DNA from: Malacoraja senta | Lineage: Eukaryota | DNA: 64,000 nucleotides | Reading direction: 5' to 3' | Assembly (NCBI GenBank): GCA_038087875.1 | Contig: CM075992.1 | Location: 9,798,001-9,862,000 of the forward strand | Shown: one piece after another, positions 2,050-56,756 of the stretch | Position numbering within the stretch: position 1 is the stretch's first letter | Layout: the number at the start of each line of letters is the position of its first letter | Notes under the pieces: model-generated | The model's input: only the letters and a program-made list of their open reading frames with translations | What the model was told of the DNA's origin: nothing | Databases searched by the model: none | Program-made: the position numbers and the translations under genes

Positions 2050-2250
2050 AGTTTAGTTTATTGACTCGTGCACCAAGGTACAGTGAAAACCTTTTGTGGC
2101 GTGCTAACCAGTCAGCGGAAAGACAATACATGATTACAATCGATGCATTTACAGTGTATAGATACAGGATAAGGGAATAATGTTTAGTGCAAGGTACAGC
2201 CAGGAAAGTCCAATCAAGGATAGTCAGAGGTTCACCAAAGAGGTAGACAG
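2050..2250 (-). mobile_element. Rex1/Babar-like LINE 3' UTR fragment
   Basis: reverse complement of the tail seen at 4300-4398 and 63150-63253. Confidence 0.6.
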
Positions 2251-2427
2251 GGAAACCAAGATTTGAAAAAATACAACATTAGACTGTTTTGGCTTGAATG
2301 TATTTGAGATACTTCAGAAGAAGCTTCCACTTATTTCTAGATACTGTACTAATCTCTTCCAAAATGCTGCCTGGAATCGAAGATATCAGCAACACAAATG
2401 CATCAGCTCCGGCAAGGTGCTACATGA

Positions 2428-2590
2428 GCGGCACGGTGGATCAGCAGTAGTGTTGCAGCCTCACAGCGCTGGAGACCCGGGTTCGATCCTGACTACGGGT
2501 ACGGAATTTTTACGTTCTCCCCTTGAACTGCGTGGGTTTTCGCCGGGTGCTTCGGTTTCCTCCCACGCTCCAAAGATGTACATGTTTGTA
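2428..2590 (+). mobile_element. tRNA-derived SINE (HE1/V-SINE-like), 3' truncated
   Basis: GGCACGGTGG head, B box GGTTCGATCC, central core GCGTGGGTTTT. Confidence 0.75.
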
Positions 2591-2644
2591 GGTCTCTCGC
2601 CCGTAGAGTCAGAGAGCAGAAGTACAGAAGTGTGAAAACGCATT

Positions 2645-4400
2645 GCACACCAATGCCTCTATTTCATTACAGGGCTTAGGAAGTTTGGCATATTCCCAAC
2701 AACTCTCACCAACCTTCACAGATGCGCCATAGAAAGCATTTTATCGGGATGCATCACAGCATTGTTTGGGAACAGCTCCATCCATGACCGCAAGAAATTG
2801 CAGAGAATTGTGGACGCAGCCCAGCCCATCACACAAACCAGCCTCCCTTCCATTGACTCCATCTACACCTCACACTGCCTCGGCAAGGCCAGCAGCATAA
2901 TCAAGTACCAGTCGCACCCCGACCACTCACTCTTCTCCTCTCTCCCATCAGGCATGGTATTGGGGGTAGGGTGTTGACATGGATAGAAAATTGGTTGGCA
3001 GACAGGAAGCAAAGAGTAGGAGTGAACGGGTCCTTTTCAGAATGGCAGGCAGTGGCGAGTGGAATGCCGCAAGGCTCGGTGTTGGGGCCGCAACTGTTTA
3101 CCATATATATTAATGATTTGGAAGAGGCAATTAGGAGCAACACTAGCAAGTTTGCGGATGACACAAAGCTGGCAGTGTGAACTGTGAAGAGGATGTTAGG
3201 AGGTTGCAGGGTGACCAGGTTGAGTGCGTGGGCAGATGCAGTATAATATAGATAAATGTGAGGTTATCCACTTTGGTGGCAAAAACAAGGGTGCAGATTA
3301 TTATCTCAATGGGGTTAGGTTAGGCAAGGGGGAGGTGCAGTGAGACCTGGGTGTCCTTGTATACCAGTCACTGAAGGTTGGCGTGCAGGTACAGCAGGCA
3401 ATGAAGAAAGCTAAATGAATGTAGGCGTTCATAACAAGAGGATTTCAGTATAGGAGTAGGGAGGTTCTTCTGCAGTTGTATAGGGCTCTGGTGAGACCAC
3501 ATCTGGAGTATTGTGCCCAGTTTTGATCTCCGAATTTGAGGAAGGACATCCTTGTGATTGAGGGAGTGCAGCGTAGGTTCACGAGATTGATCCCTGGGAT
3601 GGCGGGAATGTCATATGAGGAAAGATTGAAAAGACTAGGCTTGTATCCACTGGAGTTTAGAAGGATGAGGGGGAATCTTATAGAAACATATAAAATTATA
3701 AAAGGACTGGACAAGCTAGATGCAGGAAAAATGTTCCCAATGTTGGGCTAGTCCAGAACTAGGGGCCACAGTCTTAGAATAAAGGGGAAGCCATTTAAGA
3801 CTGAGGTGAGAAAAAAAAATTTCACCCAGAGAGTTGTGAAGTTATGGAATTCCCTGCCACAGAGGGCAGTGGAGGCCACATCACTGGATGGATTTAAGAG
3901 AGTGTTAGATAGAGCTCTAGGGGCTAGTGGAATCAAGGAATATGGGGAGAAGGCATGCATGGATTATTGATTGGGAACGATCAGCCATGATCACAATGAA
4001 TAGCGGTGCTGGCTCGAAGGGCCGAATGGCCTCCTCCTGCACCTATTTTCTATGTTTCTATGTCTATGTTTCCAAGAGTTACAGAAGTGTGAAAACGCAC
4101 ACCTCCAGGTTCAGAGACAGTTTCTTCCCGGCTGTTATGAGGCAACTGAACCATCCTACCAACAACTAGAGAGTGATCCTGAGCTACTATCTACCTCATT
4201 GGAGACCCCCACCCTCTCATTGGTTGGACTTTACTGGACTTTACCTTGCACTAAATATTATTCACATGATTCCCCTTATCCTGTATCTGTACACTATTGA
4301 TGACTCGATTGTAATCATGTATTGTCTTTCCACTGACTGGTTAGCACACAACAACAGCTTTTCACTCTACCTCGGTACAAGTGGCAATAAACTAAACTCA
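2645..4400 (+). mobile_element. Rex1/Babar-like LINE 3' part, split by a CR1 insertion
   Basis: RKKLQRIVDAAQ...[13 protein letters not shown], resuming at about 4073 with YRSVKTHTSRFRDSFFPA; AAACT-type tail. Confidence 0.8.
2953..4072 (+). mobile_element. CR1/HER1-like LINE, 5' truncated, with stops and frameshifts
   Basis: [28 protein letters not shown]; (CTATGTTT)n tail. Confidence 0.92.
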
Positions 4401-6352: not shown

Positions 6353-7380
6353 ATGTGTAGGAAGGAACTGCAGATGCTGGTTTAAACCAAAGATAGACAG
6401 AAAATGCTGGAGTAACTCAGCTGGACAGGCAGCATCTCTGGAGAGAAGGAATAGGTGATGTTTCTGGTGAGAGTCAGTGAGAGTCGGGGAAAAGGGAAAT
6501 GAGAGGGAAAGTTGGTGATGTAAGGAGATATGGAACAAATTAATGAAGGACATTCAAGAAAGTAACGGTGATCAAGGAAACAGGCCAATGTTAGCTGTGG
6601 GCTAAGTGTGAACGAGTTACAGGCAATGAGACTCACCAGGACGACATTGAGGTGGGGGAGGGATGGAGAGAGAGGGGATCAAGGGTTACTTGAAGTTAGA
6701 GAAATCAATATTCATATCGTTGGGTTGTAAACTGCACAAATGAAATATGAGATGCTGTTCCTCCAATTTGTGTTGGGCCTCACTCTGACAATGGAGGAGG
6801 CCCAGGACAGAAATGTCAGTGTGGGAATGGGAAGATGAATTGAATGTTTGGCAACCAGGAGATCAGGTAGGTCCAGGCGGACTGAGCGAAGGTGTTCAGT
6901 GAAACGGCCGCCCAGTCTACGTTTGATTTCGCTGACGAACAACGGATACAGTAGATGAGGTTGGAGGAGGTGCAATTGGACCTCTGTCTAACCTGAAAGG
7001 ACTGTCAGGGTCCCTGGACAGAGTCGAGGGAGGAGATATAGGTGTTGCATCTCCTGCAGTTGCAGGGGAAGGTACCTGGGCAGGTGGTGGTTTGGGGGGG
7101 GGGGGGAAGGGTTGTTAACCAAGGAGTTGCAGAGGGAATGGTCTCTGGGGAAGGCGGAAAGGGGTGGAGATGGGAATAAGGGACTAGTGGTGTGATCCCG
7201 TTGGAGGTGGCAAAAATGTCGGAGAATTATGTGTTGTATGTTACGGCTAATGAGGTGAAAGGTGAGGACAAGGGGGCTCTGTCTCTGTTGCAACTGGTGG
7301 AAGGGGAAGCAAGAGCGGAGCTACAGGATACTGAGGAGACACCTGTGAGGGCCTCATCTAAGATGGGAGAGGGGAACCCC
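6353..7380 (-). mobile_element. Penelope-like element 3' part (GIY-YIG endonuclease remnant plus pseudo-LTR)
   Basis: PLVLTFH...; KRRLGGRFTEHLRSVR; homologous to 15462-16148. Confidence 0.85.
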
Positions 7381-7507
7381 CATTTTACAACATGTGTTTT
7401 ACAATAATATATTTTTTCTGTGGTCACCATTGTTGAAGTTGGCTTTGTTTTAGTCCTCAGATTTAGTTACTGCGTCATCCAGCATAGAAACAGGCCTATG
7501 AGCCCAA

Positions 7508-7787
7508 CTTTAGACTTTAGAGATACAGCATGGAAACAGGTCCTGCAGCCCATCGAATCCGCGCCAACCAGCAATCCTACACTCTAGGTACAATTTACAA
7601 TTTTACAGAGCAATTAATCTACAAACCTGTACGTCTTTGGAGTGAGGGAGGAATCCAGAGCACCCGGAGGAAACCCATTCAGTCACAGAGAGAACATACA
7701 AACTCCATACAGACAGCACCTGTTGTCAGGGTCAAACCTGGGCTTCTGGCGCTGTAAGGCAGTAACTCTACCTCTGTGTCACTGCCA
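7508..7787 (-). mobile_element. HE1/V-SINE-like SINE
   Basis: reverse-complement SINE motifs. Confidence 0.75.
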
Positions 7788-7789
7788 TC

Positions 7790-8779
7790 TTGGGGAACGG
7801 CTGCTAACCAGCAGCCGTCCATTAAATTCACTTTTTTTCCTTAGTTTTTAGTTTTTCTATGTCTTTGTTGGGGAATTTTGACTTTTAATGTGGGGGGATA
7901 AGGGGGAAACTATTTCTAGGTCCCTACCTGGTCGGTGAGGCAGCTTTTTCTCCGGGCTGCCCCATCGACCCGTCCTTGTGGCCTACCAGCGGGCGTGGAG
8001 CGACGTGGAGCGGCGTTTCCTGGCGGGGACTGCCCAGCACTTTCAGCTTCGGTGGCGGCACAGCGCTGGAGCGCTATCGCGGAGCGGAGCGGGCGATGCC
8101 TTGCCTGGGTCGCCGCGCTGGATCGACGCGCTGGAGCTCCGGTATGCAGTGACCGCCGAGCTCAACACCTCCGGGCTGCGGGACTGCGGAGCGGCCAGCC
8201 GCGGGCGGCGGCGCCGACTTTAACATCGGGAGCCTCGGAGCTCCGAATCGGCGCGGCCTTGTCGGCTTCAGGTGCCACGGACTCCGGTAGGAAACCGGCT
8301 GTTCCAGCCGTCCCAGCCGCTGCGAGGACTCTCCCGACGCCAGGGCAACTGCACCCGGCGAGAACGGCCAGGAACATCGGGCCTCCGTAGAGGCAACTGA
8401 GGAGGCCTCAATAGACCTGACTTTGGGGAGAACTGGGGTTGGGGACTGGACATTGTGCCTTCCCCCACAGTGGTGATCATTGTGGGGGGGTGATTTTGTG
8501 TGTAGTGTGTAGTGTCTATGTTAGTCTATGTCCAAGATGGCGGTCGGAAGGGAGAGTGTACGCTGGCGCGGTTTGGCTGCCGCTGCTCTCCCTTCACATT
8601 GTGTTTCTGAATTTTGTTGTTGTCTTTTTTGGATCTAATTTCTGTCTTTAATTTGTGTATTGTGATGTCTTTATAACTTATTTTACTCTGATTATATGTT
8701 TCTTTGTTAAATTTTGTAAGGTGTCCTTGAGACTTTTGTATAGGCGCCCTTAAATAAAATCTATTATTATTATTATTAT
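7790..8779 (+). mobile_element. Non-coding retroposon with GC-rich core and LINE-type 3' end
   Basis: T-rich/G-run 5' part, CpG-rich core, GTGTCCTTGAG...GGCGCC...AATAAAA and (TAT)n tail. Confidence 0.6.
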
Positions 8780-9559
8780 CATGATGCCCTATCTAAGGCA
8801 GCCTGATTTCCCTGTGTTAGCCCTTAAAACTTTCCTATCCAAGTACCTGTCCAAATGTCTTTTAAATGCTGTCTTCAGCTACCTCCTGGGGGACCTCATT
8901 CCATATACCCACCACTGTCTGAGTGAGAAAACTAAGGTTAGAACATATAACATAGAGAAGTACAGCACAGGAATGGGCCCTTCAGCTGTGGCACAATGCC
9001 TGTGCCAAACATAATGACAGGACCAAATCCTATCAGCCTGCACACAATCCATATCCTCCCATGGTCCAACAAGGCTCACCTACTAATAACTAGGCCTCAC
9101 CAGCAAACCAGCAAACCCTCGCTAGCAATGTAAAAATATAGATCATAGTTTGGAATATTTCTATTTATTGAAAGGTGCAGGAACAGAACTGAATATCGAA
9201 AATGCTAGAAATGCTCAGAGGGTCATGCAGCATTTTATTATTAATGTTCAATGTTTTATGTGTAATTCTTAATTGTTTACTGTATGTCGTGTTGTTCCTT
9301 GCGAGTGGAGCACCAAGGCAAATTCATTGTATGTGTACATACTTGGTCAATAAACGTATTCATTCATTCATCTGTAGAGGGAGAAACTATTAATGGCATG
9401 AGGCACAGAAGCACAGAGTCATACAGCACAGAAACACTCCCTTCGGCTCAACTTGCCCACGCTGACCAAGATGCCCCATCTACACTAGTCCCACCTGCCT
9501 GCGTTTGGTCCAGATGCCTCTAAACCTGTCCTATCCATGTAAATGTTCAAACAGTTTTT

Positions 9560-10875
9560 AAGGCTGGAGGGTGGCAAATGTTATGCCTCTATTCAAGAAG
9601 AGCTAAGGAAAAACCTGGGGAACTACAGACTAGTGAGCATCCATGGTCAGAAAGTTACTGGAGAGTATTCTGAGGGATAAAACGAAGATAGGCACAAAAT
9701 GCTGGAGTAACTCAGTGGGATAGGCAGCATCTCTGGAGAGAAGGAATAGGTGACGTTTCAGGTCGAGATCCTTGAAGAATTATTTATTGTTATTATACAA
9801 GAGTCGAGACCCTTGAAGAATTATTATTGAAGAAGGGTCTCAACCCAAAACATCACCCATTCCTTCTCTCCAGAGATGCTGCCTGCCCCGCTGAGTTACT
9901 CCAGCATTTTGTGTCTATCTTCAATTTAAACCTACATCTTCAGTTCCTTCCTACACATTCTGAGGGGTAAGTTACATATGCATTTGGATAGACAAGGGCT
10001 GATAAGGAATAGTCAGCGAGGTTTTGTACATGGGAGTTTGTGTCTCACAAATCTGATATGTGTTTTTTGACAATGTGACCAAAAAGGTAGATGGGGGCAG
10101 AGCTGTAGATGTTGTGTATATGGATATCAGGAAAACACCTACACAGTAAATGGTAGGCCTCTGGGGAGTGTTGTAGAGCAGAGGGATCTAAGGTACATGG
10201 TTCCTTGAAACTTTCATCACAGGTAGATAAGGTGGTCAAAAAGATTTTCGGCACTTTGGCCTTCATCAGTCACAGTATTGAGTATAGAAGTCGGGAGGTC
10301 ATGTAGCAGTTATATAAGACGTAGGTGAGGCCACATTTGGAGAATTGTGTTCAGTTTAGGGCACCATGTTATAGAAAAGATGTTGTCAAGCTGGAAAGGG
10401 GGCAGAGAAGATTTACAAGGCTGTTGCCAGGACTTAAGGGCCTGAGCTATAGGGAGAAGTTCAGCAGGCGAGGATTATTCCTTGGAGCGCAGGAGGATGA
10501 GGGGTGATCTTATAGAGGTGTATAAAATCATGCGAGGAATAGATTGGGTAAACACACAGAGTTTCTTGTCCAGAATGGGGGAATCGGGAACCAGAGGACA
10601 TAGGTTCAAGATTTAATAGGAAGCAGAGGTGTAATTTTCTCACACAAAGGGTGATGGGTGTATGGAACAAGATGCGGTAGGAGGTAGTTGAGGAAGGTAC
10701 TATCATAATGTATGTATCGTAAACATTTAGACAAGTACATGGATAGGATAGGTTTAGAGGGATATGGCCCAAATACAGGAAAGTGGGACTAGTGTAGATG
10801 GGGTATGTTGGTTGGTGTAGGCAAGTTGGGCCGATGGGCCTGTTTCCACACTGACTACATGATTCTATGTCTATG
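9560..10875 (+). mobile_element. Old CR1-like LINE with internal deletions and a Penelope-derived insert
   Basis: VRPHLENCVQF, KLERGQRRFTRLLPG; CR1 3' UTR. Confidence 0.8.
9680..9957. mobile_element. Palindromic Penelope pseudo-LTR pair
   Basis: AAAATGCTGGAGTAACTCAG...CAGCATCTCTGGAGAG and its reverse complement. Confidence 0.75.
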
Positions 10876-10941
10876 TAAACGTTATAGTACTTGCCTCAAT
10901 TACTTCCTTTGGCAGTTTGTACCATACAACCTCCACTCTTA

Positions 10942-11271
10942 AAGCCCTGTCCCACGGTACGAGTTCATTCCAAGAGGTCTCCCTAGTTTGCCCTGATTCG
11001 AACTTGGAGATTTACGGTAATGGCCGCTCGTCGGTACTCGGGGCTCTCGTGGACATTTTTCAACATGTTGAAAAATCTTCACGAATCTTCCCGTGCTTAC
11101 CTGCCGTTAGCGAGTCTTCCCGAGTACCTGCCGTTAGCGTTACGAGCCGCTAAGAGATGTCCCCGAGCTCCGACGTACCCGCTACATTCATTCTCCGTGC
11201 TTACCACGAGTTATTATTTTTTTTAACTCGGCAGAGCACTTGGAATGAACTGGTACCGTGGGACAGGGCTA
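10942..11271. mobile_element. PIF/Harbinger-like MITE
   Basis: about 32-bp TIRs AGCCCTGTCCCACGGTACGAGTTCATTCCAAG; TTA on both flanks. Confidence 0.8.
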
Positions 11272-11654
11272 TTAGTGTGAAAAAGACAAGAGTGTTTGTT
11301 TATTGTATGCACCAGGAATGGAACAATGACATTCTTGTTTATATGTTCATAAGTCATAGGAGCAGAATTAGGCCATTCGACCCATCTGCCATTGAATCAT
11401 AGCTGATCTATCTGTCCTTCTCCTGCCTTCTCCCCATAACCCTTGTTGCTGCAGCTCTGCAGCCACATTAACACAATGAATAAATATACACTAATCAGTA
11501 ATACAATAAATCATGGATCACGACCCAAAATGTCACCTATCCTTTATCTCCAGAGATGCTGCCTGACCTGCTCAGTTACTCCAGCACTTTGTGTCTATCT
11601 TCGGTATGAACCAGCATCTGCAGTTCCATTCTGCACAAATTATTGTTAATACTA

Positions 11655-11980
11655 GGGCGGCACGGTGGCGCAGCGGTAGAGTTGCTGCCTTACAGCGCTT
11701 ACAGCACTGGGGACCCGGGTTCAATCCCGACTGCAGGTGCTGTCTGTATGGAGTTTGTACGTTCTCCCGTGACCTGCGTGGGTTTTCTCCGAGATCTCGG
11801 TTTCCTCCCACACTCCAAGGACGTACAGTTTTGCAGGTTAATTGACATGGTATAAATGTAAAATTGTCCCATGTGTGTGTAGGGTAGTGTTAGTGTGAGA
11901 GTATCGCTGGTCGCTTTGGACTCGCAGGACTGTCGGGCCTGTTTCCGCGCTGTATCTCTAAACTAAACTAAATTAAACTA
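11655..11980 (+). mobile_element. HE1/V-SINE-like SINE, full length
   Basis: GGGCGGCACGGTGGCGCAGCGGTAGAG head, B box, core, (AAACT)n tail. Confidence 0.9.
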
Positions 11981-12261
11981 GCTAACCACACTGTAATAGT
12001 ATCAGCTGAAGAACATGTTGCAACCTAATCAAAATACAAAGTAGATCGCTGCCAAGGTCAGGCTGTAGTTAGAGATGTGCAGTGTTGTCCAAGAGGTTAA
12101 CTGTTGATGGTAAGAAGCTGCTCTTGAACATTGAGATCACGGTTCTCAGGCTCTTGTACCTTCTTCCCAATGGTAGCAACAAGATGAAAGCATACCCAGG
12201 GTGGAGTGGGTCTTTGATGATATTAGCTGCTTTATTGATGCTGTGATTCCAGTTGTTTAGA

Positions 12262-12632
12262 GATATGTTATGTGTATTAAATCATGAGAGGAATAGATTG
12301 GGTAGATGCACAGACTCTCTTGCCCAGAGTAGGGGAATCGAGGACCGGGGGACATAGGTTTAAGTTGAAGGGGAAAAGATTTAATAGGAATCTGAGGGGT
12401 CACTTTTTTCCACAATGGGTGGTGGGTGTATGGAACGAGCTGCCAGAAGAGGTAGTTGAGGCTGGGACTATAGCAACGTTTGAGAAACAGTTCGACAGGA
12501 ACATGGATAGGGCAGGTTTGGAGGGATATGGCCCAAACGTGGGCACGTGGGATTAGTGTAGCTGGGACATGTTGGGAAGGTGTGGACAAGTTGGGCTGAA
12601 GGGTCTGTTTCCACACTGTGTCACTCTATGAC
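12262..12632 (+). mobile_element. CR1-like LINE 3' end
   Basis: GHRFKLKGKRF...FFPQWVVGVWNELP. Confidence 0.85.
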
Positions 12633-12910
12633 TGCACGCAGCGCAGAAACAGACCCTTCTGCCCACCGAGCCCATGCCAACTAGCGATCCCCGCGACACC
12701 AACATTATTTTACACACTGGGGACAATTTACAATTATACTAAGCCAATTAACCTACAAATCTATACGTCTTTTGGAGGATGGGAGGAAGCATTAACATCC
12801 AGATCACGGGGAGATCATACAAACTCCATACAGACAGCACCTGTAGTCAGGATCGAACCCGGGTCTCTGGTGCTGTGAGGCAGCAACTCTACCACTGCGG
12901 CACTGTGCCG
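12633..12910 (-). mobile_element. HE1/V-SINE-like SINE
   Basis: reverse-complement SINE motifs. Confidence 0.75.
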
Positions 12911-13420
12911 TCCTAGATCACCATGTAGATCCCTTTGATGGCGGAGAAAGGAGTCCTCGTGATGGACCGGGCAGTGTCCGCCACGTTAGAGAAATGAAGG
13001 AAATTATAGGTTGGTGAGCATCACATCAACCTAACAACTCTAACTACAACCCAACCTTAGCCCTGATCTACTTTGGTTTTGGTTTTGGTTGTACTACAAT
13101 GCTTCAGCTTACACTACCACAGACTGGCTAGTGTTACTAATAATCTATAGTATTACTGATTATTGTATGTTTAGTCGATGTGTTATTGCATTAATGTGTC
13201 TGCAAAGCTGCAGGAACAAGAATTTCACAGGCAAGCTATTGGACAGGATTCTTCGGGATAGGATGTACCAGCACTAGAAGGGAATGGACTAATTAGGGAC
13301 CGTCACCATGGACTTGCCTGCGGTAGGTCACGTCTTACGAACTTGATTGAGCTTTTTGAGGAGGTGACAAAGATGATCGATGAGGTTAGGCTGGTGGAAG
13401 TTATCTACATGGATTTTAGT

Positions 13421-13779
13421 CATAGAAACATAGAAACATAGAAAATAGGTGCAGGAGGAGGCCATTCGGCCCTTCGAGCCAGCACCGCCATTCATTGTGA
13501 TCATGGCTGATCGTCCCCTATCAATAACCCATGCCTGCCTTCTCCCCATATCCCTTCACTCCACTAGCCCCTAGAGCTCTAACTAACCCTCTCTTAAATC
13601 CATCCAGTAATTTGGCCTCCACTGCCCTCTGTGGCAGGGAATTCCATAAATTCACAACTCTCTGGGTGAAAACGTTTTTTCTCACCTCAGTCTTAAACGA
13701 CCTCCCCTTTATTCTAAGACTGTGGCCCCTGGTTCTGGACTTGCCCAACATTGGGAACATTTTTCCTGCATCTAGCTTG
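13421..13779 (-). mobile_element. CR1/HER1-like LINE 3' end
   Basis: KLDAGKMFPMLG...GYGEKAG; (CTATGTTT)n tail. Confidence 0.9.
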
Positions 13780-14712
13780 CCATGGTGGAGAGGGTGGAGA
13801 GCTTCAGGTACCTCGGCATCCACATCTCCCAGGACCTGACATGGTCACACCACCTCAGCAGCCTGGTAAAGAAGGCCAACCAGCGTCTTTACCATCTCAG
13901 ACGGCTGAGGGACTTCAAGCTCCCCCTCAAGGTGCTCAAGAACTTCTACACCCATACTCTGGAGAGCATCCTGAGTGGGAGCATCATCACCTGGATGGGG
14001 AACACCATCAAGAGGGACCAACTGGCTCTGAGGAGGGTGGTTCGCTCAGCTGAGCGGACCATCAAAACCACCCTTCCCAACCTGCAGGACATCTACACCA
14101 AGTGCTGCAGGTCAAGAGCCAGGAGGATTATCCAGGACCACGCTCACCCCAACAACAGACTGTTTTCCCTGCTGCCCTCAGGGAAACGGTACCGGCTGCT
14201 CAGGGCCAACACGGAGAGAATGAGGAGGAGTTTCTTTCCCCAGGCCATGAGACTGCTGAACGAGGACGGAGTGTCGCCGCCCCCCCCCTCCCCCCCCCAG
14301 CCCCCCAACGCCCAAACCCTCCCCACCCTCCTCACCAGCACCTCACCAGCACCTGCACCCCCGCCCAAACCCCCCGCCCCGCCCCGCCCCGCCTCGCCAC
14401 CATCAAACACACACACATGGGACTGAACTGGACGGAACATGCTGTCACCACAGGTGTTCCACGGCACTTGTCACTTTGCTTGTAACAGCACTACTTGTTA
14501 TGTGGTATATTTATGGGGTATGTGTTATATGTAGGCATTGTTTTATGTGGGTTATGTGGTATTATGTGTTATATATGGGTATTGTTTTATGTGGGTTATG
14601 TGTAAGTGGGGAACCATGCACAACTGGACAGGCACTTAAGCATTTCACTACTGGTTATACCTGTATAATTGAGTATGTGACCAATAATCTTGAATTGAAT
14701 TGAATTGAATTG
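13780..14712 (+). mobile_element. Rex1/Babar-like LINE 3' part
   Basis: VERVESFRYLGIHISQDLTWS...KANQRLYHLRRL...FFPQAMRLLN; (TTGAA)n tail. Confidence 0.88.
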
Positions 14713-15025
14713 AAGCCATTTGCTAAAGTCAACTACTGCAGGTTAATCCAGAAGGTTACAATGGATGGGATCCATGGTGTCTTTGGATTCAGAACTGGCT
14801 TACACATAGAAGTTTACACATAGCTTAGATGGATATGGCCCAAACATGGGCAGGTGGGACTATGTAGATAGGCCATCTTGGTCGGCATGGACAAGTTGGG
14901 CCAAAGTGCCTGTGTCCATGATGTTTGACTCTACGACTCTAATTGTGATGGAAGGAAGATATTCTGGCTGTAGCTTTGTGACCAGTGTAGTTCAGTGGGG
15001 ATCAGTGCTGGGATCTCTGCGGTTT

Positions 15026-15059
<34 letters not shown>

Positions 15060-15128
15060 ACTTGTAGCTGGCTCGGTTAGTAATTGTAGCTGGCTTGGTT
15101 AGTAATTGTAGATGGCTTGGTTAGTAAG
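15026..15128. repeat. (TA)n microsatellite followed by three copies of a 22-bp unit TTGTAGCTGGCTYGGTTAGTAA
   Basis: seen directly. Confidence 0.85.
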
Positions 15129-15252
15129 TTTTCAGATGACTGCATAATTTGTGGTTTCTGACAGTGAGAAAAGTTGTCAAAGTATGCAGCGTGATGTAGG
15201 TCAGCCACAGAAATGGGCGGAGAAATAGTCAATCGAGTTTAATCTGAGCAAA

Positions 15253-16146
15253 GGCACACAAAAATGCTGGAGAAACTCAGCGGGTGCAGCAGCATCTATG
15301 GAGCGAAGGAAATAGGTAACATTTCGGGCCGAAACCCTTCTTCAGACTGATAGGGGGTGGGGAGAAGAAAGGAAAAAAGGAAAAGGCAAAGGAGGAGCCC
15401 GAGGGCTGGGGGAGGGGAGGAGACAACCAGATGGCTGATGAAGGGGAGGGGACAGCCAGGGCTAGCAGAATTGGGAGAATTCAATGTTCAGGCCACCAGG
15501 ATGTAGACTGCCCAAGCGGAATATGAGGTGCATTTCCTCCAATTTACGGTGTTGCTCGCTGTGGCCATGGAGGAGACCCAGGACAGAGAGGTCAGATACG
15601 GAATGGGAGGGGGAGTTGAAGTGCTGAGCCACCGGGAGTTCAGGTTGGTTATTGCGGACCGACCGGAGGTGTTCGGCGAAACGATCGCCAAGCCTCCGCT
15701 TGGTCTCACCGATGTAGATCAGCTGGCATCTAGAGCAGCGAATGCAATAGATGAGGTTGGAGGAGATGCAGGTGAACCTCTGTCGCACCTGGAACGACTG
15801 CTTGGATCCTTGAATGGAGTGGAGGGGGGAGGTGAAGGGACAAGTGTTGCATCTCTTGCGGTTGCAAGGGAAAGTACCAGGGGAGGGGGTGGTATGGGAG
15901 GGAAGGGAAGAATTGACAAGGGAGTTACGGAGGGAGCGGTCTTTGCGGAAGGCAGACATGGGGGGAGATGGGAAGATGTGGCGAGTGGTGGGGTCACGTT
16001 GGAGGTGGCGAAACTGACGGAGGATTACTTGTTGTATGTGACGGCTGGTGGGGTGAAAGGTGAGGACTAGGGGGACTCTGCCTTTGTTGTGAGTGGGGGG
16101 ATGGGGAGAGAGAGAGCAGTGTTGCGGGGTATGGCAGAGACCCTGC
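15253..16146 (-). mobile_element. Penelope-like element 3' part with open GIY-YIG endonuclease frame and pseudo-LTR
   Basis: ORF 15462-16148: CNRKRCNTC zinc-binding region, NLIYCIRCSRCQLIYIGETKRRLGDRFAEH...GLN. Confidence 0.92.
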
Positions 16147-16169
16147 AAATGTGAGGTCTAGTAAGAGTG

Positions 16170-22855: not shown

Positions 22856-23832
22856 CTAGGAAACAGAACTTAAAATAAAATTGGTGAACACCCCGGTTTC
22901 GATAAGTGGTTTATTGTAAAACCGGTGAAATGTCAGTTCATTGGACCATCCTGCGGCCGCGAGGATATGGTCTAGAGGGACGTCCATTGCCCTCGCTGCT
23001 GACGTTGATGCCGCCCTGGTGGAGTGAGATTTAAAATTGTCAGTATTAACTCCTGCAAAAACCAATACTTGTTTCAGCCATCTTGAGATGGTCTGGACGG
23101 ACACTTTCCCATGTGTTTTTTTGTGGCTAACAAACAATTGTACTTCCGATCCTCTGAGGCCCTTGGTGACCTCAATATAAGACAACAAGTGCGCCACCAC
23201 ACACAGTCGTAAATCCGTGGGATACGGTGACAGTAAAAGCTTGACTCCTGACACCCCTGGTCTGCTCTGTTTTATGAGATCATATATGTAGAACAGAACG
23301 TCATTTCCAGATGACACCATCCTGTCCAGTCTCAATTTGTGCAGAGACTCTGCGCTGACACTAACGCCATGAGCATAACCAACTTCAAGGCAATCTTTAC
23401 CAAAGACAAGGATGTGGCTGGACCCCACTGTCGAAGCAGCGTGAGTACCACACTGACATCCCAGATTTCTGTATATCTAGGCATGGGGGGATTGGAATTA
23501 AAAACACCCTTCATAAATCGAGATATTAACGGATGAGATCCTACAGACTGTAGTTCTGACCCCAAACATAAATACGACGACAGAGCACTCCTGGCAGTAT
23601 TGATGGCACTATAACTTAAGCCGTCATCAAAATACAATTTGGAGAGAAACTCTAACACATCTGGGATGGAAACTGTGTGGTAAGTAATTTTCTCTTTTAT
23701 GCAAAATGCCTCCCACTTCCTGATATGAGAGAGATACTGCTTTTTTGTACTATCCCTCAAGGATGATGTGATGATGTCCACGGTGCGATTGGATAATCCC
23801 AGACCCAGGTATGGCCTCCTTAAAACCTGCAA
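22856..23832 (-). pseudogene. DIRS tyrosine recombinase in two overlapping frames
   Basis: STKKQYLSHIRKW, YSAINTARSALS, LCVV, SHSTRAAS, AAGWS, FHRFY. Confidence 0.9.
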
Positions 23833-25620
23833 ATTAACAAATTAATACGATCATACAACAGGTATTGATCTCCAGTCACAGGGTTTACTAATAGGTTATG
23901 ACATTTTGGAACCACCATAATTGGCTGAGTTATAATGTCCGAAATGAGAGGGAACCATGGCTGTGTAGGCCAGTCGGGCACCACCAGAACTCCTGAAGCG
24001 GAGTCCTGCTTTATTTTAGTCAAGCACCGACTGATGATGCAGAATGGGGGAAATGCATATATAAACAGTCCTCCCCAATGTAGCGCAAAAGCGTCCACCG
24101 CTACTGCCCCCGTGTCTGGTTCCTATGAAACATACTACGGCACCTGGTGATTGAGTCTGCATGCAAACAAATCAATATCTGGCATCCCATATCGAACAAC
24201 AATATTATTAAATACTTCATGATTCAACATCCATTCTGTGTTGTCATTGAATTTGCGTGATCTGGTGTCTGCCACCATGTTGAACCTGCCCGGCAAGTAA
24301 ACAGCTGAAACCCAAATGTTTCTTTTAATGCACCAATGCCAAATAAGGTTAGCCAATCTGTCACAAGATTGTGACTTGATTCCACCCATATAATTCACAT
24401 ACGCCACTGCTGTGGTGTTGTCAATCTGAATCTGAACATGTAAGTGATGCTTGGTGGTACAATAAGCCTTAAGCCCATAAAATGCTCCCAGTAACTATAA
24501 ATAATTAATTCCATGTGATTGAAGAATAAATGCCTCATGCACATTCCATCTGCCCTCACAGTTAGAGATGGTATCAGTAGCCCCCCAACCTACGGCACTA
24601 ACGTCAGTCTGTAAAACAACTGAAGGTGCTTCAATCAAAATTTTGGTGGAACAATTCGAAATGTTCCTAATCCACCATTGAATTTCAGCAATTGCTTCGA
24701 TTGCCTGCTATAATGGCCTGCATGATTCCTTAGTGCCTGTACCTTTGATCTCTGTAAGTGTTGGTAATGCAAAGGTCCATACTGTGCAGCTGGAAAGGCT
24801 GCTACCAATTTGCCAATCAAGCTGGCCACATGCCTAATTGAAGGTGATTGCTCTGCTAGGAGCTTGATACAGCCTTCAATTAAATCTAATCTCTTGCCCT
24901 TGGGTAGAGTTACAGACATGTGAGTTGAATTAATTGTGAAACCAGATAATCAATAACTTTAACCGGTATCAATTTTGATTTAGTTGGATGAATTAGAAAC
25001 CCCAGACTCTCAAACATGAGTTTAACAGCTTCAACAGATAACCCAGCTGCTTCCCGAGTTTTTCCAATTATTAAGATATCATCTAAATAAGCCATTACAA
25101 TATGACCCTGAACCCGGAGTAGCCCCAAAGCTGGTTTCAGCAGTTTTGTAAATAATCTAGGAGCTGAGGTTAACCCATTAGGCAGTGCTTTAAATTGCCA
25201 CAGCTGCCTCATCCAACTAAATTTCAAATACCTCCAATGGTCTTTATGAACAGGCACTGAGTAATATTAAGATCTATAAATGGCATATAACACCCTTTGG
25301 AAATCAATTGCTTGGCAGTGGCAAAAGTTTCCATCTTGAAATTCCTATACTGCATAAACGGATTAAGGTCCGTCAGGTCCTAAATGATCCGACTACCACC
25401 ATCTTTCTTTGGTCTGGGAAATATGTTAGATACGAATTGATGAGGTTGCCAAACCGTCTTTTCAATTACACCTTTGAGATACAATTTCTCAATTTAAGCC
25501 TGAACCTCCAAGTTCTCTGTTTGTGAGAACACAAGTGCCCTTCTGGGTGAATGTTGAGTAGGTGGACACAAATTTGCAATGAATTAAATGTTAAACCCTT
25601 GTATTGCTTGCAGTATGAAC
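23820..25620 (-). pseudogene. DIRS reverse transcriptase/RNase H/methyltransferase polyprotein remnant
   Basis: YLKFSW...LPNGLTSAPRLFTKLLKP...MAYLDDILI; TDVSAVGWG; DNTTAVAYVN; DLFACRLNHQ; YAFPPF. Confidence 0.9.
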
Positions 25621-45133: not shown

Positions 45134-45161
45134 AACGTTTCGGGCCGAAACCCTTCTTCAG
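45134..45161 (-). ncRNA. Minimal hammerhead-ribozyme-like core in a Penelope pseudo-LTR
   Basis: minus strand reads CTGAAGA-A-GGGT-TTCG-GCCC-GAAA-CGTT; stem I is weak. Confidence 0.5.
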
Positions 45162-45941
45162 ACTGATGTAGCGTGGGGAGGAGGGGGGGGGGGGGGTTGG
45201 AAGAAGAAAGGAAGAGGAGGAGCCAGAGGGCTGAGCGAGAGCTGAGAAGGGGAGGTGACAATAAGGGGTACCGGAAATTGGAGGTCAATGTTTATGCTGC
45301 TGGGGTATAAACTGCCCAAGCGAAATATGAGGTGCTGTTCCTCCACTTTCCGGTGGTGCTCACTTGGGCCATGGAGGAGGCCCAGGACAGAAAGGTCGGA
45401 TTCGGAATGGGAGGGGGAGTTGAAGTGCTGAGCCACCAGGAGATCAGGTTGGTTATTGCGGACCGAGCGGAGGTGTTCGGGGAAATGATCGCCAAGCCTA
45501 CGCTTGGTCTCACCGATGTAGATCAGCTGACATCCAGAGCAGCGGATGCAATAGATGAGGTTGGAGGAGGTGCAGGTGAACCTCTGTCGCACCTGGAATG
45601 ACTGCTTGGGTCCTTGAATGGAGTCGAGGGGGGAGGTAAAGCGACAAGTGTAGCATTGTGCGACAGAAAATGTGAGACAGACACAAAAAGCTGGAGTAAC
45701 TCAGCGGGTCAGGCAGCATCAGGTCCAGAGAAAAGGAATGGGTGACGTTTCGGGTCGAGGCCCATCTTCGGACTGAGAGTCCAGGGGAGAGGGAAACGAG
45801 AAATATGAAAAGGTACCTGGAAGAAATGAATGACAGACATGCTAAAGGAATCACAGAGGGAGAGCTGTGAGGGAGGGCTCTCCCTCAGCCCTTTGGCCCC
45901 TCCTCTTCCTTTCTTCTTCGCGCCCCCCCCACCCTACATCA

Positions 45942-46360: not shown

Positions 46361-46990
46361 CCCGGCAACGTCCCCGTCAGCTGCAGCAGAGTTGGGGACA
46401 GGATGGACCTCTGCCCACCCAGAGTCACTGACCGCATTGCATCGGCACAGGCACCACGACCCCCCCCCCCCCACTGGCACCCCGAACCTCTCCCCCCGAA
46501 CACCCCTGCCCACCAAACCCCCCCAACCACCCCCCGACCCCCCCCCCCTGACCACACCCCCCCGCGACCACCTTCCCTCCCACCGACTACCCACCACCCC
46601 CCGACCACCCGGCAACGTCAGCTGCAGCAGAGTTGGGGACAGTCTGGTCCCTCTGCCCACCCAGAGTCACTGGCCACACTGCATCGGCACAGGCACCACG
46701 ACCCCCCCCCCTCACCACTGGCACCCCGAACCCCCAACCCCCAGAACACCCCTGCCCACCGAACCCCCCCAACCACCCCCGACCCCCCCCCCCCCTGACC
46801 ACCCCCCCCCCCCAACCACCTCACCTCCCACCGACCACCCCCCACCCCCCCGACCACCCGGCAATGTCAGCTGCAGCAGAGTTGGGGACAGTCTGGTCCC
46901 TCCGCCCACCCAGAGTCACTGACCGCACTGCATCGGCACCGGCATCACGACCTCCCCCACCCCCGGCCGCCCCCCTGCCCCCACCCCCAC
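46361..46990. repeat. C-rich tandem repeat, about 248-bp unit, about 2.5 copies
   Basis: CCCGGCAAYGTC...AGCTGCAGCAGAGTTGGGGACAG at 46361, 46608 and 46857. Confidence 0.85.
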
Positions 46991-49245: not shown

Positions 49246-49449
49246 GTTAAGTTACTCCGACACAAAGTGGTGGAGTAACTCAGCGGATCAGGCAGCATCT
49301 CTAGAGAAGAAAGATAGGTGATGTTTCCGGTCATGACGCTTCCTTACTTAAATGTTAGCACCTGACACACTGGTCTCTCTGTTAAGTGACTTGGGTCCTG
49401 CTTATACACTACTCCGAGAATCACTTTCGAGTGTCATAAAGCTATTATT

Positions 49450-49750: not shown

Positions 49751-50021
49751 TTCGTGTTTGCTATACACAGACCTCCATGAGCATTCCACCTTTGTCTGAG
49801 CCCCTTGACTCCCCGCACAAGTCCCGTGTAACCAGGCTCACGTTATTTAACCTCCGTTCATTCTTTCCACAGCTTCTGCTGTTCTGAAGAAAATACACCT
49901 TAACCACGAAACTGCTTGTGAAACTTGGGGCCTTGTTTTTTTCATAACGTGACATAATTTACATCAGCTAGGGCCCATGAACCACCTAGAGAAAACTTCC
50001 CTGGAATAGCAGCATGACAAA

Positions 50022-52795
50022 TAAAGGTTTCAAAGGTCTTTTATTGTCACGTGTACCAATTAAGGTACAGTGATATGAGAATTATCATACAGCCATACGA
50101 AAAAAACAAGACTGACACACAACTACATAAAAGTTAACATAAACATCCACCACAGCGGATTCCCCACATTCCTCACTGTGATGGGAAGGCAAAAAAGTCC
50201 AATCTTCTTCCTCCTTATTCTCCCGCGGTCGAGAACCATCTGCTGTCGAGGCGATCGAAGCTCCCGCAGCCGGCGGTCGAAGTCCCTGCGTCGGGGCGAC
50301 TGCTGCTCTCGCATTGGGGTGATCGAAACTCCCACGGCTTGGAGTTCCCGGAGTCTGTCTCTGACCAGAGACCAGAGGATTTGTGATGTTAAGTCTTCAG
50401 GCACCCACAGTTGGTGCTCCGAAGTTGATCCCTGGCAAAGGGATCGCGGGCTCCATGAGGGTAAAGGGCCTGTCCACTTTGTGATTTTTTTCAGCGACTG
50501 CGAACGTCAGTGACTGACCCCCATAAATCCATCAAGTCGTACGACATACACGCTGACATATGCTGACCTGCGGGTGACACCCGGTCAGGGTTAGGGTCAG
50601 TGTTAAGGTTTGGGTCAGGGTTAGGGTTAGGGCATAGGGTAGGGTTAGGGCTAGAGTTAGGGTTAAAGTTAGGGACCACAGATGGGCTGTAAAATATTCT
50701 TCCTTCAATTGCATGGGTTTTAAACATTAATATATTAAAATTAATACAATAAAATCAATTGTGCAGTGAAAGTCGTTCAGTTTTATTTACAGATGTTGGT
50801 CTGCTTCCAGATCCAATCGCCGTCTCTAACTTTTCACAGGGATGGATTCAGTGAGTGTAGACTGAACACCTCTCTCCCCTCCACCCCCCTCTTCCCCCTC
50901 CTGCCCCCATCCCTCCTTCTCCACCCCCTACCCTTCTCCCTCCCCTCTCCCCCACTTCTTCCCTTCCCCCCGCTTCCTCCCTTCTCCCCGTTCCATTCTT
51001 CTCCCCCTTCGCCACTCCCCCTTCATATCCCCTTCTCCCCCTCTCCCTCCCTTCTCCCATTCTCCAACCCCCCCCCCCCACTTTCCCCGACACCCCCATT
51101 TGTGGACCCCAGCCTGCGACCAGCGATTCCCCGCACACTATCCCACACACGCTAGGGATAATTTATACAAACCTGTACGCCTTTGGAGTGCGGGAGGAAA
51201 TCCAAACCCTAACCTTACCCCTAACCCTAACCCTACCCCTGGCCCTAAGCATAACCCTAACCCTAACCCTAACTCTAGGTTGATAGGCTTGGTATAATAT
51301 AAATTGTCCCTAGCGTGTGTGGGATAGTATGCGGGGAATCGCTGGTCGGTGCGGACTCGGTGGGCCGAAGGGCACTGTATCTCTGAACTAGATGTGACAC
51401 AGGGGCCCCAGGGGTTGGACTCCAACCCCCAATGTTCTACCTGCTCCTCATGGGAACTAAACTGTTGGCCACGAGTTGTCCCAGAGGCAGATCTCGCAAA
51501 GGTCTCTCCAAACTGCCAGAGGCAGCGGGCTTTTCAACTGGGTACAGGCAATGTTGTCGATGTACCAATGCCACCCACCTGCTCCGGCCACTGAGTCTAA
51601 ATACCCACCACCTATTTTGAAGCAAAGCGAGGGGGCGGAGGGGGGGGGGGGTGGTTGGAGGAGGGGGAGTTGTTCCCAAAGTCTGCATTTATCCCATAGT
51701 CAATGTTACTAAACCAGATGATGTGGCCTTTGTGCAGTACTATTAGTGGAATCTAGCTGTCACAGGCTGGGTCCACAAATGGTGGGCGTCGGGGAAAGTG
51801 GAGGGGGGGTGTGGGTTGGGGTTTTGGAAAATGGGAGAAGGGAGGGAGAAGGGAGAAGGGGATATGAGGGGAGGGGGGGAGTGGAGAAGGGCGAGAAGAG
51901 TGGAGCGGGGAGAAGGGAGAAAGAGGGGGGAAGGGAAGAAGGGGGGAGAGGGGAGGGGAGAAGGGTAGGGGGGGAGTGGAGAAGGAGGGATGTGGGCAGG
52001 AGGGGGTGGAGGGTAGAGGCGAGTTCAGTCTACACTCACTGAATCCATCCCTGTGAAAAGTTAGGGACGGTGATTGGCTCTGGAAGCGGACCAATACATC
52101 TGTAAATAAAACTGAACGACTCAGACATCTTTCCATTTGCACAACTGATTTTATTGTATTAATTTTAATATATTAATGTTTAAAATCCATGCATTGAAGG
52201 AAGAATATTTTACAGCCCATCTGTGGTCTCTAACCCCAACCCTAACCCTAACCCTAACCGGGCGTCACCCGCAGGACAGCATACGCCAGCGTGTGACGGG
52301 GCGCACGACATAATGAGACGCCCTGATGTCACCCCAGGATTTTGAACATTCCAAAATCCAGGGGCGACAGGGAGACACCGTGCATCACCTGCGCGTCACC
52401 TGCGCATCACTGCGTGTCATTATATGCATCACGACCTGACCACGATGCGACAACCTCTTTTCCGGCTGTCGCCGAAAATGTCGCCCAAGTGGGACAGGCC
52501 CTTCAGTCCGCAGGCACCCGCGATGGAGCTCCCAGTTGACCTCCTGCAAAGATGATAGGCCGCAGTCATACGATACGGAAAAAAGTCGCATCACCGTCGA
52601 GGTAAGAGAATAGAAAAGGTTTCCAAAAACCCCCTCCGCTCCACCCCACCCCACCCCTCCCCCCACACACCATACCCCACATAAGACAAGCTAAAGAACA
52701 CCAAAAAATATACATTTAACACATACTTATTTAAACACAAAGAAGGAAGGGACAGACTGACTGTTGGCGAGGCTGCCATTGCTGGCACCACCCGA
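50022..52795 (-). mobile_element. Non-coding GC-core retroposon split by the 50465-52502 element
   Basis: tail module at 50030-50190, 5' module at 52560-52795; sequence is continuous across the insert. Confidence 0.55.
50465..52502. mobile_element. PIF/Harbinger-like non-autonomous element enclosing a large fold-back with telomere-like tracts
   Basis: TIR AGGGCCTGTCC(C)ACTT; flanks TAA/TCA; inverted arms 50548-51120 and 51759-52294. Confidence 0.75.
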
Positions 52796-52873
52796 TGTTG
52801 CTCAGTAATTAAAAATTGAGCTATTAACAATAACAAATCTGAAGCTCAGGTGATTAGCTTGTGTTTAGATTCC

Positions 52874-53456
52874 ATAGAAACATAGAAGAAACATAGAAAA
52901 TAGGTGTAGGAGGAGGCCATTCGGCCCTTCGAGCCAGCACCGCAATTCATTGTGATCATGGCTGAACGTCCCCAATCAATAACCCGTGCCTGCCTTCTCC
53001 CCATATCCCTTGATTCCACTAGCCCCGAGAGCTCTATCTAACTCTCTCTTAAATCCATCCAGTGATTTGGCCTCCACTGCACTCTGTGGCAGGGAATTCC
53101 ACAAATTCACAACTCTCTGAGTGAAAACGTTTTTTCTCACCTCAGTCCTAAATGGCCTCCCCTTTATTCTAAGACTGTGGCCCCTGGTTCTGGACTCGCC
53201 CAACATTGGGAACATTTTTCCTGCATCTAGCTTGTCCAGTCCTTTTATAATTTTATATGTTTCTATAAGATATCCCCTCATCCTTCTAAACTCTAGTGAA
53301 TACAAGCCTAGCCTTTTCAATCTTTCCTTATATGACAGTCCCGCCATCCCAGGGATCAATCTCGTGAACCTACGCTGCACTGCCTCAATCACAAGGATGT
53401 CCTTCCTCAAATTAGGATGTCCTTCCTCAAATTAGGATGTCCTTCCTCAAATTAGG
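52874..53456 (-). mobile_element. CR1/HER1-like LINE 3' part with open frame
   Basis: ORF 52976-53410; (CTATGTTT)n tail. Confidence 0.92.
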
Positions 53457-54851: not shown

Positions 54852-55491
54852 AGGGCCTGTCCCACTTGGCTGTCTTTCGCGCGCCATTTACGCAACCTGC
54901 TAGCGTGTGGGTAACGCATGGGTAGCGTGTGGGTAGCGCGGGGACGGGCGCATGGAGTGGTGTGGAGGAGTGTGGACTTCGTCCTGAACGAAGTCTTCGC
55001 GCGCCACCGGGCCTGTCGCGGAACTGACGGCCAAAGTGGGACAGGCCCAAGACCCTGGCGCGATGCAACGTCTCACCTCCAACAGCAGCAGAAGCAGGCA
55101 AACGATCGCCGAGCTCGGCCTGGGCCTCACGGCCGTTGCGGATCCGGATCCGCCCCCACTTCTACTCCCAGAGCGGGGGGGGGGGCCAAGAAAATTGAAG
55201 ATAGACACAAAATGCTGGAGTAACTCAGCGGGACCGGCAGCATCTCTGGAGAGAAGGAATGGATGACGTTTCGGGTCAAGACCCTTCTTTCAGACTGAAG
55301 AAACATCACCCATTGCTTCTCTCCAGAGATGTTGCCGGGCTAGCTGAGTTACTCCTGCATTTTGTGTCCATCTTCAAATGACGTCACGCGCTCCAGACGG
55401 CTGTGCGGCGCATGATGACGCGCGCAACTCTCGCGGCACCGTTGCGCGACCGTCACTACCGGCCTGTGACGGCCCAAGTGGGACAGGCCCT
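54852..55491. mobile_element. PIF/Harbinger-like MITE with a nested Penelope palindrome (55195-55376)
   Basis: TIR AGGGCCTGTCCCACTTGG; TAA duplication at 54849-54851 and 55492-55494. Confidence 0.82.
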
Positions 55492-56286: not shown

Positions 56287-56756
56287 CTATCATACACACA
56301 CTAGGGACAATGTGCAATTTTACTGCTAATTAACCTACAAACCTATGTGTCTTTGGAGTGCAGGAGGAAACCGGAGCTTGACACAAGATGCTGGAGTAAC
56401 TCAGCGGGACAGGCAGCATCTCGGGAGAGAGAGGAATGGGTGACGTTTCAGGTTGAGACCCTTCTTCAGACTCATATAGATGAAGTCTGAAGAAGGGTTT
56501 CAACCTGAAACGTCATGCATTCCTTCTCTCCTGTGATGCTGCCTCTCCCACTGAATTACGCCAGCATCTTGTGTCTATCTTCGGTTTAAACCAGCATCTG
56601 CAGTTCCTGCCTACACAGGAAACCGGAGCTCCTGGAGAAAACCCATGCAGTAACAGGGAGAATGTTTCAACTCCGTACAGACAGCACCCGTGGTCAGGAT
56701 GGAACCCGGGTGTCTGGCGCTGTGAGGCAGCAACTCTACCGCTGCGCCACCGTGCT
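56287..56756 (-). mobile_element. SINE interrupted by a palindromic Penelope pseudo-LTR pair (about 56379-56617)
   Basis: AGGAAACCGGAGCT duplicated around the insert; inverted arms. Confidence 0.8.

Follow-up and report, generated by a model that had tools for sequence, protein, structure and literature searches.

A decayed copy of a common gene-less DNA element with Harbinger-like ends, a foldback build and telomere-like tracts

The DNA analysed here (the window) is a stretch of 64,000 nucleotides from Malacoraja senta (contig CM075992.1, positions 9,798,001 to 9,862,000), and its positions 50465-52502 hold an aged and decayed copy of a common gene-less DNA element, an odd design made from known parts. 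The element is a single insertion of 2,038 bp within an older repeat; in its working it resembles a non-autonomous Harbinger element, and in its build a foldback. It is best explained, with a probability of about 70%, as a member of a dispersed family of non-autonomous, non-coding PIF/Harbinger-type transposons with a foldback build, a passive composite that would be moved in trans. Taken alone, the locus is nothing more than one decayed copy of a repeat, of an ordinary kind.

The original prediction, made from the sequence alone, had offered two readings: a transposon of the foldback type, its modular arms and cargo enclosed by Harbinger-type terminal inverted repeats (TIRs), or a repair product with telomere-repeat additions. 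The former is supported by the target-site duplication (TSD), by the empty site and by an order of junctions that recurs in multiple copies from several organisms. The latter fails for this locus, since the structure recurs in diverged copies, and it is still a plausible way in which the founder arose once.

Ends, arms and centre of the insertion

The host repeat is made of sub-repeats, and when the element and one 3-bp copy of the target are removed, what remains matches the previous sub-repeat without gaps. The score of this empty-site alignment is 52 with a 3-bp TSD and 45 without it. The TIRs, of 15 and 16 bp, can be extended with mismatches to about 38 bp, and the similarity between the left and right ends has a z of 5.5 (0 of 200 shuffles). 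These TIRs had been said to match those of a MITE (a miniature transposable element with inverted repeats) at 54852. The TIR match holds, with the left TIR at 50465 one base short, but the supposed MITE at 54852 is itself composite. The modules are listed below with their strand and supporting evidence; depths are those of run X1 in the contig comparison of the following section.

50020-50464, no strand: left part of the older host repeat, which continues at 52503; three diverged relatives in the window, 68-80% over 60-183 nt; high depth in 4/4 runs
50462-50464, plus: left TSD, TAA; empty-site alignment
50465-50479, plus: left TIR, here lacking one C; 10-21 contigs per run have this C, at 50473
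50480-50547, plus: left subterminal region of a MITE-like shell; depth 8,000-16,000 at 50519-50538
50541-50548, plus: 8-bp direct repeat, left copy; partner at 52305-52312
50548-50583, plus: GC motif of the left arm, carrying a subterminal-type motif; 28/32 aligned letters shared with the right copy
50584-50673, plus: decayed (TTAGGG)15, G strand inward; 75/90 in register, Tandem Repeats Finder (TRF) score 91
50674-50867, plus: AT-rich block of the left arm; 185/191 (96.9%) against the right copy, plus 17 gap columns
50868-51116, plus: pyrimidine tract (91% pyrimidine over 50868-51095) and 21-nt inner motif of the left arm; G4Hunter down to -2.8
51117-51204, minus: inverted piece of a short interspersed element (SINE); 48/50 against the forward piece, 30-41/50 for eight other SINE copies; shared private deletion
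51205-51277, minus: decayed (TTAGGG)12, the central tract, within the inner hairpin's loop; 65/73 in register
51278-51390, plus: SINE 3' piece, forward; many copies within the window
51391-51761, no strand: asymmetric centre ("cargo"), non-coding, with a G-rich run at 51626-51669; depth 22,000-67,000
51762-52023, minus: inner motif and purine tract (89% purine over 51786-52016) of the right arm; module alignment, composition
52024-52228, minus: AT-rich block of the right arm; module alignment, depth 55,000-89,000
52229-52259, minus: decayed (TTAGGG)5, G strand inward; 29/31 in register
52260-52294, minus: GC motif of the right arm; blastn and module alignment
52305-52312, plus: 8-bp direct repeat, right copy; partner at 50541-50548
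52313-52486, minus: right subterminal region, with a hairpin (52330-52366) and 11-bp tandem motifs (52385-52419); sequence, TRF
52487-52502, minus: right TIR; matches the TIR of 54852-55491
52503-52505, plus: right TSD, TCA (one mismatch to TAA); empty-site alignment
54852-55491, no strand: sister element with common TIR and perfect TAA/TAA TSD, composite (inner TIR ends at 55049); TIR/TSD search

The inverted modular arms were recovered both by blastn and by module-wise alignment, where they had been predicted to lie. The main blastn alignment joins 50643-51130 with 52259-51748 (527 columns, 83.7%, E 3e-156), and an outer piece joins 50548-50610 with 52294-52232 (63 nt, 85.7%). Overall, the arms are about 84% identical, differ by 24 substitutions and by indels, and are separated by a spacer of 645 bp. 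The good conservation claimed for the AT-rich block was confirmed by the arm-to-arm comparison; its A+T content is 64% over 194 nt and 76% in its core. The polypyrimidine and polypurine tracts, identical at 198/215 positions (92%) between the arms, had been called pure and are actually 89-91% pyrimidine or purine; the inner motif is conserved at 20/21. No further copy of the AT-rich block or of the centre is present within the 64-kb window.

Some minor features of the arms were also inspected. The motif TCACCYGC is found at 50577 (minus strand), 52265, 52385 and 52396, with five sites elsewhere in the window. About 60 nt of the AT-rich block (50797-50856) lie by eye between acceptor-like and donor-like splice motifs, with no protein match, and might derive from a captured gene. 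The captured-exon look of part of this block and a guessed homology between it and the centre are unsupported, the pair having failed a 200-shuffle test, and a TIR-like look of the outer end of the right arm was dropped as too weak by eye (about 10/16).

An inner hairpin is formed by about 51117-51170 with 51290-51348 (-71 kcal/mol, z -8.7, 0/100 shuffles), with the central telomere-like tract in its loop. According to the alignments of the two stems, they are one SINE copy duplicated in reverse around that tract. Since the forward SINE piece starts where the gap of the inverted piece starts, template switching may have been involved. The weak Rfam match to MIR7533 (search at E up to 5; 58 bits against a gathering threshold of 230) reflects this hairpin only and was rejected. 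The inner hairpin, the TSD, the host repeat and the 8-bp repeat flanking the core were absent from the original description.

In the sister element, a complete short element (54852-55049) is followed by a palindrome with 78-bp arms in the middle (55195-55377) and by the outer TIR at 55491; its TAA/TAA TSD fits the outer ends only. The TIR family common to 54852-55491 and 50465-52502 seems to form composites readily.

Copies of the element in public sequencing runs

Among the 23 runs listed as holding words of the element, 16, from nine organisms, contain 0.17-0.34 of them. The contigs of four public runs were compared with the locus: X1 and X2 (organism A), X3 (organism B) and X7 (organism E). 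A junction was counted as bridged when a contig had at least 31 letters on each side of it, and the telomere-like tracts were left out as repeats.

Every module, the centre included, has a summed depth far above that of the exact-locus contig in the four runs, from three organisms; summed depth is not copy number, and only its order of magnitude is taken here. In X1, the median over 19 bins (50501-52400) is 35,327, compared with 16.7 for the exact-locus contig, the ratio being 64 in the lowest bin and 1,326-4,035 in the centre. In X2, the median is 1,726 versus 2.8, with ratios of 55 in the lowest bin and 290-1,107 in the centre, and the depth profile is alike in X3 and X7. Contigs of the right flank identical to the locus were found in organism A (52479-52704, depth 16.7; 52491-52663, depth 2.8).

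The copies have not only the modules but also their order in common. Thirteen contigs that bridge junctions, with 6-13% substitutions, are present among the 32 records listed (317,180 more exist). Among them, two join the AT-rich block to the pyrimidine tract and two the purine tract to the AT-rich block (X3); three join the left arm to the inverted SINE piece (X1, X2, X3), three the SINE to the centre (X1, X3, X7) and three the centre to the right arm (X2, X3, X7). Five further listed contigs that cross a junction by fewer than 31 letters were left uncounted. Thus, the order of the inner junctions is the same in diverged copies from three organisms. At the outer side, the from_end values at 50528/50538 and 52320/52324 are 37-57 in 4/4 runs, which fits the presence of shell and GC motif on one contig in all four.

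The variant letters of the family bear on the history of the arms. Taking 27 variant sites among those listed (305 further rows follow), 17 have no partner in the other arm, and at 8 of the 10 with a partner the letter of the family is that of the other arm. This agreement indicates that both arms decayed from one consensus and were more alike when the family spread.

Other joints were noted in the same runs. The joint 50373 to 52505 is present in 4/4 runs (one to four contigs each, side 24-27 letters). Two joints with foreign letters in between mark variant subfamilies: the one from 51547 to 52079 lacks the inner right arm (X3, depth 192), and in the one from 52378 to 52441 the right subterminal region is shortened (X1, depth 1,443). 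In addition, the family TIR adjoins the 8-bp repeat tail of a CR1-type element, as joints 52503 to 52887 are found in 21, 18, 18 and 28 contigs of the four runs (sides of 24-28 letters), and this suggests that the CR1 tail is a preferred target. PIF/Harbinger elements prefer extended target sites of 9-15 bp, and two target sites are readable in the window.

Related systems, proposed origin and rival explanations

PIF/Harbinger elements are defined by 3-bp TWA/TTA/TAA TSDs (bioRxiv 10.64898/2026.05.26.728016; PMC3014272), have TIRs of 14-25 bp (PMC3014272) and require for transposition both a DDE transposase and a Myb-like end-binding protein (PMC2836001). The two readable sites have 3-bp TSDs of this type (TAA/TCA here, TAA/TAA at 54852), and the TIRs of 15/16 bp are within the reported range. 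In common with non-autonomous PIF/Harbinger elements and Tourist-like MITEs (mPing, Harbinger3N_DR, Xenopus Harbinger-N12A_XT), the element has short TIRs, a TWA-type TSD, no open reading frame (ORF), a high copy number, repeated subterminal motifs and internal palindromes; it differs from them by its 2-kb size, its internal arms of about 570 bp, its three telomere-like arrays and a captured SINE (PMC2836001, PMC3016246, PMC12676858, bioRxiv 10.64898/2026.05.26.728016). With 2,038 bp it lies outside the size range of MITEs (100-500 bp), although it is non-coding and multi-copy as they are, and its 274-bp shell alone would fit.

The foldback build is seen in a middle domain enclosed by long inverted repeats, which are modular and include a domain of tandem repeats. 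Tetris, FB and Galileo also have long modular arms, an unequal tandem-repeat domain (here 15 versus 5 hexamers) and a non-coding middle, whereas in the element the long arms are internal to asymmetric MITE ends, the outer TSD is 3 bp instead of 8-10 bp, and the tandem unit is the telomere hexamer (PMC4079207). Most foldbacks are said to be Mutator-type (PMC4079207). Compared with the long TIRs reaching the termini and the 8-10-bp TSDs of Mutator/Tetris elements, the whole element has a 3-bp TSD and asymmetric ends, and its core has an 8-bp repeat that is 11 nt off on the right.

Other systems are similar in single traits. The composite hobo_AC of Anolis is likewise a vertebrate non-autonomous element amplified with captured genomic DNA and fragments of SINEs and other transposable elements, but it belongs to another superfamily (hAT), and the available part of its description reports no long fold-back or telomeric arrays (PMC3014272). 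The TBE transposons of Oxytricha also carry telomeric repeats in their inverted repeats and make a 3-bp TSD; their repeats are at the very tips, with the C-rich strand first, and they have three ORFs, whereas here the arrays are subterminal and decayed, with the G strand inward, and there is no ORF (PMC4724952). Membership in TBE was rejected on the position of the arrays 119 and 243 bp inside the ends, their opposite polarity and the lack of ORFs. Kolobok elements have a 4-bp TTAA TSD and RR..YY termini (PMC9587614); the RR termini agree with this, but the flanks read GTAA/TCAG in one element and CTAA/TAAG in the other, with TTAA on both sides in 0/2 elements, and Kolobok was also rejected.

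The following origin is proposed for the family. A Harbinger MITE of about 275 bp would have taken up, once, a fold-back core of about 1.75 kb containing genomic DNA, telomere-like tracts and a SINE piece along with its reversed duplicate. This core may have arisen by break repair with template switching, in which the arm and the SINE piece were copied in reverse. The TTAGGG repeats would have been added at break ends, probably by telomerase, as both outer tracts have the G strand running inward and start from a GG(T) of the GC motif that could have served as primer. A transposase and its Myb/SANT partner, acting in trans, would bind the TIRs and the subterminal motifs, and the whole 2-kb composite would be moved by cut-and-paste into TWA-like sites. 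The spread could have occurred before the organisms split or in parallel, and the copies would then have decayed neutrally, with the telomere-like tracts, the G-quadruplex (G4) tracts and the arms as passengers. Such a family would extend the foldback build to Harbinger-type ends.

Several observations weigh against this explanation. The TSD has one mismatch, and only two TSDs are readable. The exact-match contigs at the right end contain only 24 and 12 letters of the element, below the 31-letter rule, and no contig crosses any telomere-like tract (the tracts having been left out) or spans the whole element; we infer the linkage of shell and core in other copies. No autonomous partner was found among the 123 metagenome and viral loci with the TIR motif. 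The remaining points concern the relation of the core to its shell, and they can also be read as signs that the core (about 50549-52304) is an independent hAT- or Mutator-type foldback with modular TIRs of about 570 bp and an 8-bp TSD, inserted in a Harbinger MITE of about 275 bp, with most copies outside the shell. An 8-bp direct repeat is found at both borders of the core, with a chance of 1-2% when judged post hoc (matches of at least 8 bp arose in 58/2988 random window pairs and 24/3000 shuffles, the zones having been chosen after the match was seen). The 274-bp shell left after removal of the core has a near-central hairpin, at position 120, and weakly palindromic halves (score -14 versus -41 +/- 8 for shuffled sequences). 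Shell-specific depth is about 2-4 fold below that of the centre (7,000-16,000 versus 22,000-67,000 in X1), which allows copies of the core outside the shell. Moreover, in one X3 contig of depth 153, the left end (50517) is linked by 17 unrelated letters to the right hairpin (52336), as in a short shell-like MITE without the core; this short form may represent an ancestor, a sister family or the product of a deletion. Tetris-type foldbacks with 8-10-bp TSDs and modular TIRs provide a precedent (PMC4079207). However, 11 extra letters at the right border leave the arms not flush with the 8-bp repeat, the subterminal motif of the shell is also present in the GC motif, the from_end values of the four runs point to a shell that continues into the GC motif in other copies as well, and the short form in X3 is equally explicable as a deletion derivative. 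A nested foldback, the main rival explanation, is considered unlikely.

That other copies, too, have both arms joined to this centre argues at once against independent insertions, a local repair event and a chimera. A locus-specific product of telomere addition and fold-back synthesis in a resident MITE, never amplified, would account for the head-to-head orientation of the tracts, the template-switch-like duplication of the SINE and the lack of a second copy within the window, and a two-sided telomerase addition has been proposed for some vertebrate loci with interstitial telomeric sequences (ITS; PMC8537989). Nevertheless, diverged contigs of organism A, which has the exact flank match, and of two other organisms contain the centre and the asymmetric junctions on both of its sides, at depths hundreds to thousands of times that of the locus, making this origin very unlikely here. 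Even less can be said for a dispersed repeat that was inserted twice, independently and in opposite orientation, at a distance of 645 bp: the arm is itself multi-copy and the arms differ in indels and tract length, but the junctions of the left arm with the inverted SINE piece and of the centre with the right arm recur (at least three records each), and no TSD around either arm alone was seen on reading. The original prediction had named such paired insertions, together with an assembly error, as what would speak against it, and at the inner junctions neither was found. An assembly or chimeric-read artefact of the fold-back type could explain the lack of a spanning record; it is hardly credible when the arms differ by 24 substitutions and indels, as a chimera would be near-identical, when the junctions are found in independent runs, and when the right flank is present letter for letter in two samples of organism A.

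Herpesviruses and Teratorn-like elements can bear telomere repeats at their termini, and the TTAGGG arrays within long inverted repeats recall a remnant of such a terminus. This origin is extremely improbable and was rejected: the AT-block probe has 0 exact matches in viral_contigs, no viral-type Pfam family is matched at cut-off in the 10 of 31 frames scanned, the TSD is of 3 bp and not TTAA, and the element is filled with a SINE and low-complexity sequence.

Telomere-like tracts, coding potential and surroundings

The three telomere-like tracts lie where they had been predicted, as verified with TRF. Their in-register identity is 83-94%, and the longest perfect runs are of two hexamers in the left tract and three in both the central and the right ones. 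The element contains 17 perfect hexamers, whereas the remainder of the window predicts 0.46 (Poisson P 3e-21). Each outer array begins at the GG(T) that ends the GC motif; their lengths are unequal (15 versus 5 units), and they sit 119 and 243 bp inside the element ends. TERC-ITS are accompanied by a fragment derived from telomerase RNA; in Rfam, no telomerase RNA family is matched at gathering in the window, nor within the element when E values up to 5 are admitted. Short ITS (s-ITS, TERC-ITS) are also short internal TTAGGG arrays, some of them head-to-head, attributed to telomerase at breaks; they are exact or almost exact and single-locus, whereas the arrays described here are decayed and belong to an amplified element (PMC8537989). 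That study found that transposons had no role in the spread of TERC-ITS (PMC8537989).

With respect to unusual DNA structures, the absolute G4Hunter score is at least 1.5 in 22% of the 25-nt windows of the element and in 1.9% of those outside, so that the predicted capacity to form G4 structures is computationally supported as a potential. The prediction of cruciforms fared less well: because of the 645-bp spacer and the divergence of the arms (84% identity), extrusion in duplex DNA is unlikely. In diverged or spaced inverted repeats, cruciform formation is limited in duplex DNA and pairing is still possible in single-stranded regions (PMC10164571). The single-strand fold of the element has 509 long-range pairs, and pairing of the arms would require single-stranded DNA or transcription.

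Whatever their function, it is rather probable that ITS-like arrays have been dispersed in bulk here by a transposon. Should the family have the size that its depth suggests, one transposon would have spread, with each copy, three telomere-like arrays, long inverted repeats and G4-prone tracts across the species group, which bears on the origin of interstitial telomeric signals, on false telomere calls in assemblies and in fluorescence in situ hybridisation, and on the risk of rearrangement in single-stranded DNA (PMC10164571). It is an improbable proposal, on the other hand, that the telomeric repeats are working parts of a vertebrate transposon family. The arrays would then recruit Myb-type telomere binders (TRF1/TRF2 or the Myb/SANT helper) that pair or protect the excised ends, with the arms aiding synapsis; a link of TRF1/TRF2 to paired TTAGGG arrays is assumed here. 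This would explain the very high copy number of a 2-kb palindrome in several species, and short interstitial telomeric sites as well as G4 sites would have arisen by the thousands in their genomes.

The element is non-coding and without an RNA family. Thirty-one stop-to-stop frames of at least 50 aa overlap it; in the 10 of these 31 that were scanned (five from the centre), no Pfam family was matched at cut-off, with three weak matches (E 0.06-0.17), and Rfam gave 0 matches at gathering in the 64-kb window. No RNA run is present among the 23 runs listed as holding words of the element. A 21-nt probe from the AT-rich block has 0 exact matches in metagenome_contigs and 0 in viral_contigs. A probe for the TIR motif found at least 119 metagenome and four viral loci, and 0 of the 123 examined had an enclosing TIR pair or a similarity to the element of at least 28 nt. 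No description of the family was found in the literature; Repbase/Dfam and supplements were outside this search, so the family may be catalogued there.

The window, whose DNA we take to be of vertebrate type and from a skate- or ray-like cartilaginous fish, is repeat-rich, with a GC content of 37-59%, and one SINE, presumably HE1-type, recurs in it many times. Its long ORFs resemble what we assume to be fragments of CR1, Penelope/GIY-YIG and DIRS retroelements; those at 128-598, 22856-23841, 15462-16157 and 45158-45700 presumably correspond to DIRS (RNase H/methylase, tyrosine recombinase) and to Penelope GIY-YIG domains. A palindromic repeat with a hammerhead-like core, presumably akin to Penelope ends, recurs at 55195-55377, 49259-49345 and 56359-56596, with no Rfam match at gathering. 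A GC-rich tandem repeat of 249 bp (2.4 copies, with C-run tracts) occupies 46375-46964, and a perfect triple tandem duplication of 20 bp is found at 53394-53456, within a CR1-like fragment.

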